From Nanobdellota archaeon (GTDB lineage Archaea > Nanobdellota > Nanobdellia > Woesearchaeales > JACQSR01), in NCBI GenBank assembly GCA_042577505.1, contig JBHPEA010000001.1, positions 23,880-87,879 of the forward strand: DNA of 64,000 bases, given 5' to 3'. Within the stretch, counting starts at the first letter, position 1. Each line of letters begins with the position of its first letter. The notes beneath the pieces were generated by a model, which was not told the origin of the DNA, made no database searches, and saw only the letters and a program-made list of their open reading frames with translations. Positions 160 to 21,608 of the stretch are shown piece by piece. Made by a program: the position numbers and the translations under genes.

Positions 160-966
160 TTACTTCTTCAAAGGTTTCATGTCTTTCCATGCCATGTCAA
201 ATAATCCTTGTAATGCATTTGCAAAGAAAGGCGTATTAACCCAGACACCAATATCATAAGTTGGATGTACTTGAGCATCATCTAAAACCATAAACACAAG
301 CTCTTTTCCATCAACAATACAGAACCTAGCTTTTGAGTTTGTACTTCTAACTTCAGCAACTCCATTTAACTCTTGAGCAGAAGCCATATTTTCTTTTGTT
401 AATGGTGCTGCAATCTTAATCTTAACCCCTCTCTTTTTCATCTTTTCTAGGGTGGGTTTAAGACCTTCAACTTTCCTCATAAGACCTTGTGCTGTCGTCA
501 TAATTGTAATGCTGTTTTCAGCATTCTTCATTGTCAATTCAAGATGATTGTACAAATTATGTCGCCCAGTCAATGATCCACTAAGGTCAGAAGGTTCCAC
601 AAGTTCAATTCCCTGTGAATGTAGTGTATTCAATTCACCAATCACTTCTGTACTCTTTAAGTCATCTAATCTAGTAATCTTGTCTTTAGCATCCTCATGA
701 ACATTCTTTTTTACTCTTTCCACAACCTCCTGGGGTGGAACTGCAATATACTTTATTGGTTTACCTAGTTTCATTATAACGAAACCTTTCTTCTCTAATG
801 TCTCTAGAACATCATATGATCTACTTCTAGGTACATTCGCAATATCTGATAGTTCACCAGCGGTAGAAACTCCCCTAGACAGCAGTGCTGTCCATATCTT
901 AACCTCATATAGGTTCAACCCGAAATACCTTCTAAGCTTACTTAAAAACTCCTCTTTTACAATCAT
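160..966 (-). CDS. TrmB-family archaeal sugar-responsive transcriptional regulator
   Basis: N-terminal wHTH (…YEVKIWTALLSRGVSTAGELSDIANVPRSRSYDVLETLEKKGFV…) and C-terminal effector domain, both typical of TrmB. Confidence 0.6.
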   Translation of the reverse strand: MIVKEEFLSKLRRYFGLNLYEVKIWTALLSRGVSTAGELSDIANVPRSRSYDVLETLEKKGFVIMKLGKPIKYIAVPPQEVVERVKKNVHEDAKDKITRLDDLKSTEVIGELNTLHSQGIELVEPSDLSGSLTGRHNLYNHLELTMKNAENSITIMTTAQGLMRKVEGLKPTLEKMKKRGVKIKIAAPLTKENMASAQELNGVAEVRSTNSKARFCIVDGKELVFMVLDDAQVHPTYDIGVWVNTPFFANALQGLFDMAWKDMKPLKK

Positions 967-1201
967 CTTAAACCCCCCTTAGTATTGTTTAATTGGTGAA
1001 TAACGTGCTAGTAAAAACACCTTCACCCCCGTTTAGCCCTATTAGGCCATAGTAATGATCTGTATTTACTTCAAAATGATACACTGCGTAAGTAATAGAA
1101 TACAACTTATATTTAAACTTTTCCAGAATTTCCTTGTGATCACTCCTCTTTACAATTAATCCGTTTAAAAGAATTTGTATTATCGAGAAAATAATTGGTG
1201 T

Positions 1202-1272
1202 GTACGCTCCTCAGTTACTTCCGTATATCATCGCCTCTCGGCTCATCTGGTGTTCACTAAGTCATTGCGTAC
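1202..1272. repeat. 71-nt conserved element, copy A; terminal 6-bp stem GTACGC/GCGTAC; candidate structured ncRNA or small inverted-repeat-ended element
   Basis: Identical 60-nt core to copy B at 2994-3064; terminal inverted repeat seen in sequence. Confidence 0.5.
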
Positions 1273-1355
1273 TTAGTAATGTTATGTATGTTTATTTATA
1301 AATTTTGACGATATTTATAGAAACTAATTTATAATTCAATTTAAATTTATCACAA

Positions 1356-2960
1356 ATGGCAAAAGCTAAGGGTATAGACAATGTATCAAAAATCATTTTT
1401 TTATCTGCAGCAGTTTTATTATTAATAGCTATTTGGTTTATTTCTGATTCGGATGATTCCGTAGGTAATGCATCAAGATTTAATAGAGCATATAATACAC
1501 CAAAAGCTTCGATATGGAATTCTCCTGAATGTGTCATCCAGCCAGGTGATAATACTTGTACAACTACAATCTTTTGGGAATCAGAAAATATTGACCACAA
1601 TTACATAAAGATCTATCTAAAGGAAACCGGTCAAGAGTTTCATTGTGGCCCTTCAAATTCTCCTGGCAGCATGGATGCACCTTGGATAACTGAAAATGGA
1701 TTCACCTTTCAATTGTACCCTGTGAAATCTTGTGATGAACATTATTATGGTAAACCTTTGACCTCAAGTTTAGTGTATGGAAAAAAAGCAGAGAATAAAT
1801 GCGACGTTAAAAGTATAGAAATGATTGGTGAAGGCGCGTTTCCAAGGTGGTCTTATGATGGGACTAAAATAACATTTACAAAAGAAGTAGATAATCAGTT
1901 TGAAGTTTTTATTATGGATGCAGACGGGAGCAATGCACAATGTCTTACTTGTGGCAAAGTTGCTTTAATTGGAACAAGACATAGGGGACAATCATCATGG
2001 CATCCTTCTGGAGAATACATTACATTTTCAGCTGAAACAAAAAAATATCGTAGAAAAGGGGATGGCACTACAACAAGACCCGGTTTAGGACGAAACCACG
2101 ATATTTGGATTATGAAATCAGATGGTACTAAGTTCAATAGAGTAACAGACTATGGAGATAATTGGGGGGCAATAGAACCTCACTTCTCTCATGATGGTAA
2201 AATGATTCATTGGGATGAAGAATTTATGATGGAAGAATGGCCGAACGGAAAAATTGGCGATTGTTGCGGAGAGGTATGTTGTGAGAGACACCCCTTCCTC
2301 GAAAACTGCAATCCTTTAGACTATGCTTGTGCGGATGCATTCCCTAGTCGCCATCCTGGTTGCTATTGGGGGCCCCTTACTTTTATTTATAGACAAGGCG
2401 AAGAACTTTGTACTTGGAGAATTAGATATGCAGACTTCTCAGTAGGTCCAAGAGGGTTTGCAACAATATCAAACATAAGAACGCTTCCCCCCCCATCAGG
2501 ATTTACTTTGATCGAATCAAATGGATTTACCCCGCAAAATGAGGGATTTACTGCAAGCTATGCGGATCTAGATCAATATAATGGCGATGGCAGACACGGA
2601 GATGTCTATATTCATTACAAAAATGGTATGATGAAACAGTTAACTCAAACTCCCGAGCCTGATGAAGATCCTGTTATGTCGCCAGATGGGAAATTGATTG
2701 CATGGAAATATTGCACTGAATATCCCTGTGAAGGTCCAGGTGATGATCAAGTTTACTTAATGGATTCGGACGGTAATAATATCAGGCAGTTAACATCATT
2801 TTCTCATCAAGATGACAAACAAATTACAGAAATATCTTGGAAGAGAGATGGTACTGCTTTAGCACTCGGACATGTAATCAGTGAAGAGGTAATGGGGCCC
2901 CACATACCTTCAGATATTTACATATTAACCTTCAAAGGCAATTGCGGAAATTCTAATTAA
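1356..2960 (+). CDS. Secreted or anchored TolB-like PD40 beta-propeller repeat protein
   Basis: N-terminal TM/signal (IIFLSAAVLLLIAIWF); repeated motifs WSYDGTKITF, DADGSNAQCLT, MSPDGKLIAW, YLMDSDGNNIRQLT typical of PD40/TolB blades; higher GC than neighbours. Confidence 0.55.
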   Translation: MAKAKGIDNVSKIIFLSAAVLLLIAIWFISDSDDSVGNASRFNRAYNTPKASIWNSPECVIQPGDNTCTTTIFWESENIDHNYIKIYLKETGQEFHCGPSNSPGSMDAPWITENGFTFQLYPVKSCDEHYYGKPLTSSLVYGKKAENKCDVKSIEMIGEGAFPRWSYDGTKITFTKEVDNQFEVFIMDADGSNAQCLTCGKVALIGTRHRGQSSWHPSGEYITFSAETKKYRRKGDGTTTRPGLGRNHDIWIMKSDGTKFNRVTDYGDNWGAIEPHFSHDGKMIHWDEEFMMEEWPNGKIGDCCGEVCCERHPFLENCNPLDYACADAFPSRHPGCYWGPLTFIYRQGEELCTWRIRYADFSVGPRGFATISNIRTLPPPSGFTLIESNGFTPQNEGFTASYADLDQYNGDGRHGDVYIHYKNGMMKQLTQTPEPDEDPVMSPDGKLIAWKYCTEYPCEGPGDDQVYLMDSDGNNIRQLTSFSHQDDKQITEISWKRDGTALALGHVISEEVMGPHIPSDIYILTFKGNCGNSN

Positions 2961-2993
2961 GATAGATTAAAGAAAACATTTGTATGATAAAGT

Positions 2994-3064
2994 GTATGCT
3001 CCTCAGTTACTTCCGTATATCATCGCCTCTCGGCTCATCTGGTGTTCACTAAGTCATAGCATAC
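2994..3064. repeat. 71-nt conserved element, copy B; terminal 7-bp stem GTATGCT/AGCATAC
   Basis: Same 60-nt core as copy A; stem differs by a compensatory C-G to T-A change plus an extra closing pair. Confidence 0.5.
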
Positions 3065-3146: not shown

Positions 3147-3581
3147 ATGGGTGTTCGTGACTGGCCTTTTTGGTCATGGGTCTATGGTTTCACACCATGG
3201 GGCAAAGAAGCTATTGAAACAGAAGGAGAAGTAATTAGAATTCACAAAGGACTTCTAAAATTAATGAGGGAAGAGAGAGAACAATTTCGAGTTATTGTTG
3301 GGATTTTGAAGGATGCAAACTTTTCAAAAAGAGTAATAGAGAATGTCGATGAGTTTATCACTGCAATTGAAGGTGAAAGGTTATTATCAAAAAGAAGAAC
3401 TATGTTGATTGAGTTAAGAGATTTTTTACTCAGTAGAAAAAATCAGGTAACTTTACTTCCAGAACATACAAGAAGAAGGTTAATGGAAGAATTCCGAATA
3501 ATTAGATCGCTAATTGAGGAACAAGCAAATTTCATACACGCATTAAATATTGATTACACAAAACTACCAAGAGTGGATTAG
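3147..3581 (+). CDS. Hypothetical protein
   Basis: 144-aa ORF, no recognisable motifs. Confidence 0.3.
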   Translation: MGVRDWPFWSWVYGFTPWGKEAIETEGEVIRIHKGLLKLMREEREQFRVIVGILKDANFSKRVIENVDEFITAIEGERLLSKRRTMLIELRDFLLSRKNQVTLLPEHTRRRLMEEFRIIRSLIEEQANFIHALNIDYTKLPRVD

Positions 3582-3584
3582 CTT

Positions 3585-3848
3585 TTAAATAATATCTTCT
3601 TCAGCAATAACCATGAAGTCACCGATTGCAATTACTGCAGAAAAGGGAATCAACAATTTTCCATCCTTGCTTTTTTCTAAATCAAGCTTTTCACAGTAAG
3701 ATGTTGGGTTTTTCAGAACTAAATTAATCAGTTCTCCACTCCTTGTCTCGAATACAAGGTCACCTAATTCACCAAATCTTTTCCCAGCTTTACTTACTAC
3801 CGTCTTTCCCATCAGGGTTTTAGAGAACTTTTTATCGTCTTCAGCCAT
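3585..3848 (-). CDS. PRC-barrel domain protein
   Basis: 87 aa; pattern GKTVVSKAGKRFGELGDLVFETRSGELINLVL typical of small archaeal PRC-barrel proteins. Confidence 0.5.
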   Translation of the reverse strand: MAEDDKKFSKTLMGKTVVSKAGKRFGELGDLVFETRSGELINLVLKNPTSYCEKLDLEKSKDGKLLIPFSAVIAIGDFMVIAEEDII

Positions 3849-5006: not shown

Positions 5007-7043
5007 TCAACCGCAGACATTAGGCCTGTATATTGGTGCTATTCCCTTATTGATTTCATAATTTCCATCTTCAAGACTCATCATATGAAATTCTCCTGGA
5101 GGGTGTTCTTGGGGGGACCAAGTATAAAATACCCAACCATCGAAACCAAAATCACATGAATCAGTTATCCATTGACTAGCACGACTTCTCGCTTCATCTA
5201 TTGTATCACAAGTGACAAAAAAATACCCAAATTCCTGCATAAAAAGTGGTTTATCTAGTCTTCCAGTGTATCCATAATCTCTAATAACTGTTTCAAAGTC
5301 ACCTTCTTGACTGTCTGCAAAATCCTGATACATTGATAGGCTTAAAAAATCTAAATTACTATCGTAAAGGGTGGAAAGTGGCGGAATTCCAATTGTATTT
5401 GGATCAGGGAATTCATTATAATAAAAACCTAGTGTAACAAAAGCATTTTCATCAGTTTCTCTTATTACTCCTGCAATTTCATCAATAAGATATCTAAGAT
5501 TGTCTTCCATCATTCGTTCTTTTTCACCCTCAATAGACATGTCATATGTACCTGCAGCTGTAGGAACTGGTCCAGAAAGAGTAAATGGTTTTTCATTCTC
5601 ATGGAATGCTATTTCATTTTCTAAGCTGTATGCAAAGATTGCATCTAGGGGTGCATTTATCATTTTAAGATTATTTATAAAATCTCTAGTCATATCTTTT
5701 CTAGCTCGTATACATTCATCTAATAAAAAATTTGCATTATAATGGTCAATATATTCTGGATTAGAGTTCCAGTATTCTTCATAATCCCAATATTCAAAAG
5801 GTAAATAATCTCGGAACACCAGTATTGCTCCGATATCATTTTGTTTACACAATCGTAAGAAATCAGCTACATTTTCCATATATTGGGGGCCCATCCCTGG
5901 TTCACTAGTGTGAATAGAAGGGTGACCGTTTAAAAAAACTCTAATTGTGTTATAACCAAAGAATTTCATTTTTTGTAGAACTGATGACATATGATCTGAA
6001 TCATAATAGCCAACATCGAAAACAGCATGTCCCCAGTTTGGATCTCTATCCCCCCAAGGAGGTACTAACCAACCAAATTGAGGATAGTGTGAACCCCTAG
6101 GATAAAATATTTCTTGGTTGATTTGATCGTAGAAATATCCGTCATAATCTGGTGTTTGTTTGATAATAATGCCGTCTGGTCTTGATGTTGTTGCACCTAT
6201 TGTGACTTGTCCAATTGGTTCATTTCCAGATACATCTTCATCACAATCAAGAGCAGGAATAACTTTGAATGTTAGTTCATTTCGATTTATGTAATCAAAT
6301 TCTTGAGAAGTTCTTACCCAATAATCATCAGAATCTGGGTCATAAATATTTGAAAGACTACATTTCATAAGTTGTGAAGTACCAGTAATATCTTCTACAT
6401 AAACCTGCACTCTTGGTTGTGGAACATTTTCTGAGCTCCAGAATATTGTAGTGCTACAATACTCTTCACTAGGTTTTATTACACATGAAGAGGGATAAGC
6501 CCAAATATTAGCACTACCTTGTTGTTCTCCCCAAACAGTAATTGAATGAATAGCAGGTCCATGTTGAACACAATCAGGTGATGCATGAATAGAGAAAGTC
6601 AAATCTCCTGTACCTATCCAAGGGATTGAAATGCTTGGAATTACAGGGGAAGTTCTATGATTCATACCTGAGTCACTACAATTTACTATCACTCCTTCAG
6701 GTAATTGCTCATAGCTTACTTTTATTACAACATTTGGTTGTCGTAAAATTTTACTTGACACCCAACTGATAGTTGTTGTACAAGTATCACTACCAGGAGT
6801 AATGGTGCAGGGATTTGGTGTAGCCCACACAAAAGCTAACAAATTTGTATCAATCATACCATCACAATTATTGTCTATTCCATCATTTTCATCTTCAACA
6901 GCACCTGGATTGACATCTGGATTCCCTTCATCACAATCTTCTGGCGGAACAAATCCATCACCATCTCGGTCAGAAACGCAGCTTGATATTAAAATTGCAA
7001 TAATTAGCAAGATAAATGTTGAAAAATGCACCCTTTTTTTCAT
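5007..7043 (-). CDS. Secreted glycoside hydrolase-like protein (TIM-barrel, GH5-like) with N-terminal MopE-like Cys/Asp-rich metal-binding module
   Basis: Start chosen at internal MKKRVHFSTFILLIIAILISSC (signal peptide plus Cys) rather than the ORF-track start at 7106; motif DCDEGNPDVNPGAVEDENDGIDNNCDG; C-terminal NTIRVF…LENEIAF GH-like region; TATA-like aaaattatatatac about 30 nt upstream. Confidence 0.45.
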   Translation of the reverse strand: MKKRVHFSTFILLIIAILISSCVSDRDGDGFVPPEDCDEGNPDVNPGAVEDENDGIDNNCDGMIDTNLLAFVWATPNPCTITPGSDTCTTTISWVSSKILRQPNVVIKVSYEQLPEGVIVNCSDSGMNHRTSPVIPSISIPWIGTGDLTFSIHASPDCVQHGPAIHSITVWGEQQGSANIWAYPSSCVIKPSEEYCSTTIFWSSENVPQPRVQVYVEDITGTSQLMKCSLSNIYDPDSDDYWVRTSQEFDYINRNELTFKVIPALDCDEDVSGNEPIGQVTIGATTSRPDGIIIKQTPDYDGYFYDQINQEIFYPRGSHYPQFGWLVPPWGDRDPNWGHAVFDVGYYDSDHMSSVLQKMKFFGYNTIRVFLNGHPSIHTSEPGMGPQYMENVADFLRLCKQNDIGAILVFRDYLPFEYWDYEEYWNSNPEYIDHYNANFLLDECIRARKDMTRDFINNLKMINAPLDAIFAYSLENEIAFHENEKPFTLSGPVPTAAGTYDMSIEGEKERMMEDNLRYLIDEIAGVIRETDENAFVTLGFYYNEFPDPNTIGIPPLSTLYDSNLDFLSLSMYQDFADSQEGDFETVIRDYGYTGRLDKPLFMQEFGYFFVTCDTIDEARSRASQWITDSCDFGFDGWVFYTWSPQEHPPGEFHMMSLEDGNYEINKGIAPIYRPNVCG

Positions 7044-7113
7044 GTTGTGAATTTTCCAATAGAAGTATATATAATTTTCCTTTAAACGACGAAAAAATGT
7101 ATACAATTTAGTT

Positions 7114-21044: not shown

Positions 21045-21608
21045 ATGGCAAAGAAATCCAAGAAGGAAGAGCCAGAGAGCGAGAAAAAAGTTGTTGAGGC
21101 AACTTTTTCGCGAGAACGAATATTAACTGAAAGTTCTGATCTGGCTAGAGAATTATTCAACACTAGTAGATATGGGACTCTTTTATCTACAGGAAAGGTT
21201 CAATTATCCTTACTAGAATCAATGTATTTGTTAGAAAAAGAAAAATTAGTAATATTCGATAAAAGAACAAAACTTCCTTTTGACAAATTCTTAAAAAAAG
21301 CAATTAGATTGGAACCAAACTTCTGGATTAGATATTGTGTCTTTAAAGACATTAGGAATAGGGGCTACATTATCAAAACAGCATTGAAATTCGGAGCAGA
21401 CTTCAGAGTATATGACAGAGGAGTAAAACCCGGAGAAGACCATGCTAGATGGATTGTTTACCCAGTTCATGAGGGTTCTACATTAACCTGGTACGAATTT
21501 GCAGCAAAAAACCGTGTAGCACACTCTACTAAGAAGAGACTATTGATAGGTATAGTAGATGATGAAGGAGACGTAACATATTACGAAATCAGGTGGCTCA
21601 GGCCGTAA
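21045..21608 (+). CDS. endA: tRNA-splicing (intron) endonuclease
   Basis: C-terminal KFGADFRVYDRG…HARWIVYPV…WYEFAAKNRVAHSTKKRLLIGIVDDEGDVTYYEIRWLRP matches the EndA catalytic domain; about 187 aa, alpha4-type size. Confidence 0.75.
   Translation: MAKKSKKEEPESEKKVVEATFSRERILTESSDLARELFNTSRYGTLLSTGKVQLSLLESMYLLEKEKLVIFDKRTKLPFDKFLKKAIRLEPNFWIRYCVFKDIRNRGYIIKTALKFGADFRVYDRGVKPGEDHARWIVYPVHEGSTLTWYEFAAKNRVAHSTKKRLLIGIVDDEGDVTYYEIRWLRP

Follow-up and report, generated by a model that had tools for sequence, protein, structure and literature searches.

Two near-identical copies of a short element stand on either side of a single gene for a TolB-like beta-propeller protein in a 64-kb stretch of Woesearchaeal DNA (the window), and the question raised by this locus is whether the element is a structured RNA, a pair of recombination junctions around an inserted cassette, or a small mobile element with terminal inverted repeats. 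The genes of the window are archaeal, among them those for TrmB, for an L18e-L13-S9 ribosomal protein cluster and for a tRNA-splicing endonuclease, and ~34% of its bases are G or C. The analysis described here indicates that each copy is very probably an independently transcribed minus-strand gene for a box C/D-type small RNA (sRNA) of ~71 nt, and that this RNA most likely guides 2'-O-methylation by a complex of L7Ae, Nop5 and fibrillarin, as judged by analogy with characterized archaeal systems. The kind of RNA is well known; what is new is this family, which lies outside Rfam and has slightly unusual box sequences.

A repeat search of the window identified a 73-nt direct repeat (1200-1272 and 2992-3064; 96% identity; offset 1792 nt) with a 60-nt core that is the same in both copies, has exactly two occurrences in the window and has none in 100 shuffled sequences. 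The preliminary description of this DNA had already reported two direct copies with this core, at an extent of 71 nt; the copies are there, but the repeat reaches 2 nt further, to a plus-strand GT that corresponds to AC at the 3' end of the RNA. The boundaries of the repeat coincide with the ends of the RNA, and the sequences flanking copy A and copy B are unrelated. The copies differ at three positions, all within the outer 12 nt of the repeat: two of these (plus-strand 1205 C versus 2997 T, and 1269 G versus 3061 A) replace a C-G pair of the terminal stem by U-A, a compensatory swap that had been noticed before and is borne out by the sequence of both copies, and the third is plus-strand 1266 T versus 3058 A.

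The functional strand is predicted to be the minus strand, because the better fold z-scores (-3.1 and -2.7 for the two copies), the box motifs, the GNRA and UUCG loops and the G.U pairs of two homologues (L019 and L212, introduced below) are found there only. An RNA from the plus strand was rejected: it folds less well (z = -0.6 for copy A), it lacks the box motifs, and the G.U pairs would become A.C mismatches in it. Read on the minus strand, copy A is GUACGC-A-AUGACUU-AGUGAACACCAG-AUGA-GCC GAGA GGC-G-AUGAUAU-ACGGAAGUAACUG-AGGA-GCGUAC (Table 1), and copy B has, in place of the GUACGC/GCGUAC stem of copy A, the GUAUGC/GCAUAC stem of the orthologue in locus L007. In the terminal kink-turn, the 6-bp stem is followed by a loop of 3 nt (AAU), by tandem G.A/A.G pairs between the GA dinucleotides of the C and D boxes, and by a Watson-Crick continuation; the second kink-turn is made by the D' (AUGA) and C' (AUGAUAU) boxes and is capped by a hairpin of 3-4 bp whose loop is of the GNRA or UUCG type. 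Between the two motifs lie segments of 12 and 13 nt that are unpaired. A seventh terminal pair that had been proposed for copy B does not fit this structure, in which its partners are the first nucleotide of the kink-turn loop (A, U or G across homologues) and the invariant sheared A opposite. A generic box C/D scan of the 64 kb parsed both copies in just this way and returned essentially nothing else, whereas shuffled sequence gave zero or one weak match. Of the preliminary remarks on boxes, the hint of a D-box-like CUGA on the opposite strand pointed to the right strand and the right class of RNA, although that CUGA is displaced by 3 nt, in the upstream direction, from the place where homologues have their D box; the statement that there is no C box was mistaken, since a C box of the form RUGAnnn is present and its last positions covary with positions 1-2 of the D box.

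Homologues were sought with nhmmer and then with a covariance model built from the first matches, in a related set of 80 loci (L007-L086; 1.27 Mb of Woesearchaeal DNA); L212 and L213 were found in addition. The RNA is present in six other Woesearchaeal lineages, represented by L007 (GCA_016211215.1), L008 (DATDYF01), L019 (JAUUYB01), L075 (JACJVV01), L081 (CAZOOV01) and L212/L213 (L212 being GCA_023255615.1), with the same layout of boxes and guides as in the window, and a weaker relative occurs in metagenome contig L005. In an alignment of nine sequences, 89.7% of the cells are paired and 11 of the 14 pairs have changes on both sides; none of 500 shuffled alignments reached the observed values, shifted registers were 32-50% paired, and RNAalifold, unaided, recovered the same helices. 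The earlier suggestion of a structured RNA with a covarying terminal stem, which had rested on the two copies, therefore now has covariation across seven lineages behind it.

The pattern of conservation within the family follows the same architecture. All nine sequences keep an unchanged RUGA in the C box and GA in the D box, beside the covarying 6-bp stem, and positions 5-6 of the C box covary with positions 1-2 of the D box, the window having the pairs C5-G2 and U6-A1. The D box is CUGA in L019, L075 and L081, AUGA in L007, L008 and L212, and AGGA in the window; D' is AUGA except in L075 and L081, where it is UAGA; and C' is AUGAUAU, AUGAUUA or AUGACAn, with a canonical UGAUGA inside that of L019. 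All three pairs of the apical hairpin covary (GCC/GGC, CCC/GGG, UCC/GGA, GGC/GCC, GGA/UCC, AGGC/GCCU). The spacing is 12 nt from C to D' and 13 nt from C' to D in every Woesearchaeal copy that was parsed (both window copies, L007, L008, L019, L075 and L081). The best-conserved parts of the family are unpaired: both invariant blocks, GUGAACACC and AGUAACU, belong to the guide segments, written for the family as GUGAACACC(nn) and (ACGG)AAGUAACU(n), and this is the pattern that would be expected of antisense guides.

An exact 30-mer had no match in species-representative genomes, a 20-mer had none in viral contigs and six in metagenomes (five of them chance matches in GC-rich coding sequence), and a structured pattern of the family had none in viral contigs. 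The relative in L005 (836-915 of contig Ga0315276_10701055, 55% GC) is a distant C/D-like RNA with an identical apical module, a similar D guide (AAACGGAGUAGCUU) and a different D' guide, which suggests that lineages outside the low-GC Woesearchaeota also have the target of the D guide. In three homologues (L008 8255-8338, L081 14192-14276, L075 14113-14197) the terminal stem resumes past a 3-nt bulge in its 5' strand, with the sequences GUGC-ACA-AUGC / GCAU-GCAC and ACAC-AAG-AUGC / GCAU-GUGU, and in L081 there is further GAUCA/UGAUC pairing outside the extended stem; the extension could be a processing or stabilising element.

Taken together, the RNA has the parts by which an archaeal box C/D sRNA is structurally defined, with degenerate boxes and an internal motif closed by a hairpin. 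The two-fold arrangement of C/D and C'/D' with a spacing of 12-13 nt is what the Nop5 dimer measures. The terminal motif resembles kink-turns of the L7Ae-binding Kt-7 type in its C stem with an invariant G-C and C-G at the end, its 3-nt loop, its tandem sheared G.A/A.G pairs and its variable non-canonical stem, but a kink-turn is a structural motif rather than an RNA family and by itself specifies no function. The box C/D sRNAs of Sulfolobus, Pyrococcus, Pyrobaculum and Nanoarchaeum equitans have the same short terminal stem, C/D kink-turn, internal C'/D' motif and length of ~70 nt, and are alike also in having two guides of ~12 nt, a TATA-like promoter of their own, an intergenic site, guides that are more conserved than boxes and stems, and occasional full-length duplication (PMC6009581). 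Unlike those RNAs, the window family keeps only RUGA in its C and C' boxes, whose last three positions vary and, in the C box, pair with D positions 1-2; it has a D box of AGGA or AUGA, with CUGA in three lineages only; its D' and C' boxes are joined by a tetraloop hairpin of 3-4 bp, which makes the internal motif a true kink-turn and not a K-loop; and its host belongs to a mesophilic DPANN lineage.

By analogy with the archaeal box C/D mechanism (PMC7994747), L7Ae would bind both kink-turns, a Nop5 dimer with fibrillarin would bridge them, the two conserved guides would base-pair with a cellular RNA, probably 23S ribosomal RNA (rRNA), and a 2'-O-methyl group would be placed on the nucleotide that faces guide position five, counted upstream from D' or D; the sRNA may have a further role as a folding chaperone. 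Fibrillarin and Nop5 belong to the standard set of single-copy markers for archaea, in surveys of DPANN genomes as well (PMC9258230). The generic scan of the 1.27 Mb of Woesearchaeal loci found this family alone above background, in line with the low sRNA numbers of some non-thermophiles: the counts given in PMC7994747 include 7 sRNAs for Methanococcus maripaludis versus 52-128 for most of the thermophiles listed there. Putative expression signals accompany the genes: in six or seven of the first eight copies a TATA-like box ends 18-25 nt ahead of the point where the terminal stem begins, the box CTTATAAAC is common to the upstream regions of L007 and L008, most copies are followed by T-rich tracts, and in L007 a terminator-like hairpin lies between the sRNA and the gene for the TrmB-family regulator downstream.

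Other classes of RNA were considered for the copies and set aside. For an archaeal H/ACA sRNA, the trinucleotide after the stem (ACA, ACU, ACU, ACA, AAU etc.) is not conserved, the kink-turn is found by the basal stem and not in the upper one, and the geometry of a pseudouridylation pocket is lacking. Nothing was found for either copy among tRNA, transfer-messenger RNA (tmRNA) or any Rfam family, and the earlier judgement that the element is not tRNA-like agrees with the failure of ARAGORN and of Rfam RF00005 to find a cloverleaf.

Several observations weigh against a methylation guide. Neither copy matched an Rfam family, C/D families included, at the gathering threshold or at E <= 10. The boxes of the window, AUGACUU (C) and AGGA (D), deviate from RUGAUGA and CUGA, and the linker between D' and C' is a hairpin of 10-12 nt; short D'-C' loops are usual in archaea. 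A covarying helix (18-67, 20-65, 21-64) links the beginning of guide 1 with the final part of guide 2, and guiding would require this helix to open first because it ties up the guide ends. L7Ae, Nop5 and fibrillarin did not turn up in the available DNA, approximate probes for fibrillarin and L7Ae having no match there, but this DNA covers only a small part of any genome and the result is uninformative. At the candidate site for guide 2 on proxy rRNA, described below, guides of the L019/L008 type are equalled by 8-13 of 200 shuffled guides, a weak result, and the match of the window's own guide variant is not significant.

Candidate targets were sought on proxy rRNAs (E. coli, Halomicrobium and an archaeal consensus), which represent lineages other than that of the host. 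E. coli 23S 2683-2691 (CUGGUGUUC), right beside the sarcin-ricin loop on its 3' side, has 9 nt in common with the guide-1 target, the archaeal consensus there being CugGUuUAcCGG, and another partial proxy match of guide 1 is at Halomicrobium 23S 1683-1694. The guide-2 site is a partial match at the H61/H62 junction (Halomicrobium 23S 1745-1757, AAGUUAGUCCCGU, ~E. coli U1680; archaeal consensus AAAuUagccCCGU), in a region that is called a conserved methylation hotspot in PMC7994747; the joint placement of L019/L008-type guides, with guide 1 sitting 62 nt upstream of the guide-2 site, is equalled by 5-7 of 200 shuffled guides. Candidate target nucleotides in 23S are the equivalents of E. coli U1680, U1621 and U2687. 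These matches are weak leads and not findings. Complements of the guides in the window and related loci, 1.3 Mb that contain no 16S or 23S, were only self matches or chance-level 9-mers; the target patterns had only chance matches in viral contigs, none in rRNA context; and the guides matched neither the anticodon loops nor the few tRNA-like sequences in the available loci.

How the window came to have two copies can be read from the gene order of its relatives. In L007, and identically in five independent samples, a Cas4-like gene, a PRC-barrel gene, the sRNA and TrmB follow one another on one strand, the sRNA starting 41 nt past the stop codon of the PRC-barrel gene and 426 nt ahead of TrmB. 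In L008, 1.7 kb with two unrelated open reading frames (ORFs) separates the sRNA from TrmB; in L212, ~500 nt separates the PRC-barrel gene from the sRNA, after which MazE/PIN replaces TrmB; and in the window the minus-strand order is PRC-barrel gene, ORF144, sRNA-B, TolB-like gene, sRNA-A, TrmB. Because L007, L008 and L212 have a single sRNA copy without the TolB-like gene or ORF144, and because both of these are absent from all 80 related loci (by tblastn for the TolB-like gene), the ancestral state is predicted to be one copy between the PRC-barrel gene and TrmB, and the second copy to have arisen by duplication in this lineage, within a variable region with turnover of accessory DNA. The window genome would have gained ~2.3 kb there, comprising ORF144, the second sRNA copy and the TolB-like gene. 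The two window copies are more similar to each other (96% identity) than to orthologues (87-92%) and share the derived AGGA D box and GCC/GGC hairpin. The 60-nt core has remained unchanged while the stem change was compensated, which argues that both copies are under selection or have been homogenised by gene conversion; since both stems are self-consistent, the copies are not crossover hybrids within the core. Full-length duplications of C/D sRNA genes with unrelated 5' flanks are described in Pyrobaculum (PMC6009581).

The genes around the copies call for some further remarks. The bracketing of the TolB-like gene by the copies, which had been described as exact, holds as flanking, with gaps of 83 and 33 nt around the ORF at 1356-2960. 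The nearest homologues of its product are ~60% identical over ~70-72% of the length, have mixed taxon labels and are encoded in tandem PD40 arrays with no sRNA nearby; an N-terminal part is apparently missing. Residues 50-144 (window 1503-1787, Cys-rich) are 33-34% identical to two tandem domains of a GH5/MopE-like protein (5007-7106) whose gene is 2-4 kb distant, and the TolB-like gene looks like a domain-shuffled mosaic. Exact look-ups of the TrmB and TolB-like protein sequences returned no record. ORF144 has no Pfam match and, among 5.8 billion proteins, matches only itself; it may be a gene of very recent origin, or no gene at all. The TrmB-family neighbour is unusually conserved: over 550 species-level genomes, almost every one labelled Woesearchaeota or Nanoarchaeia, have an orthologue at 75-86% amino-acid identity, and some (L075, L081) have a second paralogue nearby. 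Some 90-160 nt upstream of the TrmB start in the window, a non-coding stretch of ~77 nt (window 1052-1128, minus strand; GTGTATCATTTTGAAGTAAA.ACAGAT.ATTAC...GGGGGTGAAGG) is 86% identical to L007 and kept in L008; it may be the promoter, operator or leader of TrmB.

Table 1. Coordinates of the two sRNA genes, of the parts of copy A and of neighbouring features in the window
Feature	Position	Strand	Remarks
sRNA copy A	1202-1272	-	71 nt; RNA 5' end at 1272; model score 98.5 bits; parsed by generic C/D scan
sRNA copy B	2994-3064	-	71 nt; RNA 5' end at 3064; 102.8 bits; parts as in copy A, shifted +1792
Copy A 5' stem	1272-1267	-	6 bp with 3' stem 1207-1202
Copy A kink-turn loop nucleotide	1266	-	
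Copy A C box AUGACUU	1265-1259	-	
Copy A guide 1 AGUGAACACCAG	1258-1247	-	12 nt
Copy A D' box AUGA	1246-1243	-	
Copy A hairpin GCC-GAGA-GGC	1242-1233	-	
Copy A C' box AUGAUAU	1231-1225	-	
Copy A guide 2 ACGGAAGUAACUG	1224-1212	-	13 nt
Copy A D box AGGA	1211-1208	-	adjoins 3' stem
TATA-like box TTTATAAATA	1293-1302	-	ends 20 nt upstream of copy A
TATA-like box (A)TTTATAA	3087-3094	-	ends 22 nt upstream of copy B
TrmB-family regulator	160-966	-	Pfam; conserved downstream neighbour of sRNA in L007, L008 and the window
TolB-like / PD40 beta-propeller gene	1356-2960	+	Pfam PD40; between the copies, antisense; not part of the RNA
ORF144	3147-3581	+	between PRC-barrel gene and copy B; lineage-specific extra DNA
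PRC-barrel gene	3585-3848	-	Pfam, synteny; conserved upstream neighbour in L007, L008, L212 and the window

The same elements could be read in other ways, of which the nearest to a guide RNA is a kink-turn RNA that binds L7Ae without guiding methylation, either as a regulatory or scaffold RNA or as a cis element of the TrmB transcript. The non-canonical boxes of the window, the failure to find a target and the covarying helix that occupies the guide ends would all suit such an RNA, as would the position of copy A and of its L007 and L008 orthologues upstream of TrmB on the same strand; L7Ae-dependent translational regulation through kink-turns in 5' leaders is reported for archaea in PMC5539422. 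However, the 12/13-nt spacing and the two-fold C/D and C'/D' layout fit a Nop5 dimer, and the unpaired segments are best conserved, as for antisense guides. For a cis element in particular, the RNA is not beside TrmB in L019, L075, L081 and L212, copy B has no downstream gene on its strand, and the hairpin in L007 separates the sRNA from TrmB. A kink-turn RNA without a guide function is accordingly considered quite unlikely.

The suspicion that the pair marks the boundaries of an inserted cassette was right insofar as the copies accompany a lineage-specific insertion or duplication that the single-copy relatives lack. The further step, that the copies are attL/attR-like junctions or homology arms with the sRNA gene as integration target, the repeat being owed to recombination and not to a need for two copies, is judged improbable. 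It would account for the single copy in L007, L008 and L212, for the differing accessory DNA on either side in each lineage, which marks a recombinationally active spot, and for repeat ends that are the RNA ends with unrelated flanks. Even so, a single crossover in the core between differing stems would leave mismatched halves, whereas both copies are matched; the insert consists of a single mosaic gene, one domain of which recurs in a gene at a distance of 2 kb; and a lone cassette bounded by the repeats does not explain all of the extra DNA, since ORF144 is not between the copies. The att-site reading was rejected because the stems are self-consistent, each copy being a complete, compensated RNA gene, and because no integrase or recombinase gene lies in or beside the insert. 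A small non-autonomous element of the miniature inverted-repeat transposable element (MITE) type, with terminal inverted repeats of 6-7 bp, is extremely unlikely. Two copies with terminal inverted repeats and unrelated flanks recall the MITE-like C/D sRNA family of Pyrobaculum calidifontis (PMC6009581), but only two copies occur in 64 kb and none in the 80 related loci beyond syntenic or single sites, each relative having one; neither copy has a target-site duplication; and the inverted repeat covaries as an RNA helix, G.U pairs included. It is conceivable, though quite unlikely, that the sRNA gene is a preferred recombination anchor in Woesearchaeal genomes, in a role akin to that of tRNA genes for integrative elements: genes of the accessory kind come and go on both of its sides (ORF144 and the TolB-like gene in the window, a pair of unrelated ORFs in L008, MazE/PIN and NUDIX-like fragments in L212), and because the copied unit is exactly as long as the RNA, there is a hint of RNA-templated or site-specific copying rather than ordinary segmental duplication.

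The apical module of the RNA recurs in one tRNA intron. The 20-nt sequence GAUGA-GCC-GAGA-GGC-GAUGA is found, identical, in the 43-nt intron (AAUUUGAGUG-AUGA-GCCGAGAGGC-GAUGACAU-...) of a tRNA-Leu(CAA) gene at 1626-1752 of metagenome locus L001 (contig Ga0066336_11, 1.16 Mb, 40% GC), where the guide is complementary to the anticodon loop and the wobble base, C34, has as its partner the fifth nucleotide upstream of AUGA. This intron looks like a half-size, cis-acting C'/D' methylation guide and would back the D'/C' reading of the module, but this support is suggestive only, because the same helix is needed for the splicing motif. A neighbouring tRNA-Gly(CCC) gene of L001 (290-440) has an 80-nt intron. 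An intron-encoded box C/D guide is described for tRNA-Trp of Haloferax volcanii (D'Orval et al. 2001, as cited in PMC7994747); unlike such guides in pre-tRNA, the window RNA is encoded by a free-standing gene with both box pairs, outside any tRNA. As to standard tRNA genes, ARAGORN found none in the 64-kb window and the 1.27 Mb of loci and Rfam none in 207 kb; an E. coli control worked with ARAGORN, and masking by N runs was excluded as a cause. Some 40-50 tRNAs would be expected by our own estimate. Just two tRNA-like 3' halves were seen (L022 near 5321 and L074 near 7530, strand-local index), and the tRNA-splicing endonuclease (EndA) gene of the window (21045-21608) fits intron-containing or unusual tRNA genes.

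Much is understood about box C/D guide RNAs from thermophilic archaea and from eukaryotes, and in the literature searched no account was found of such RNAs from Woesearchaeota or from other DPANN lineages that are mesophilic. For annotation, the locus would hold two non-coding RNA (ncRNA) genes and not a repeat or a mobile element, the RNA being otherwise an ordinary housekeeping RNA. The family suggests that C and D boxes can drift far while compensating changes keep the kink-turn, which matters for the automated detection of sRNAs. It offers a concrete guide RNA candidate for the Woesearchaeal clade, conserved across several lineages, and its conserved guides imply that the methylation target would be conserved as well.

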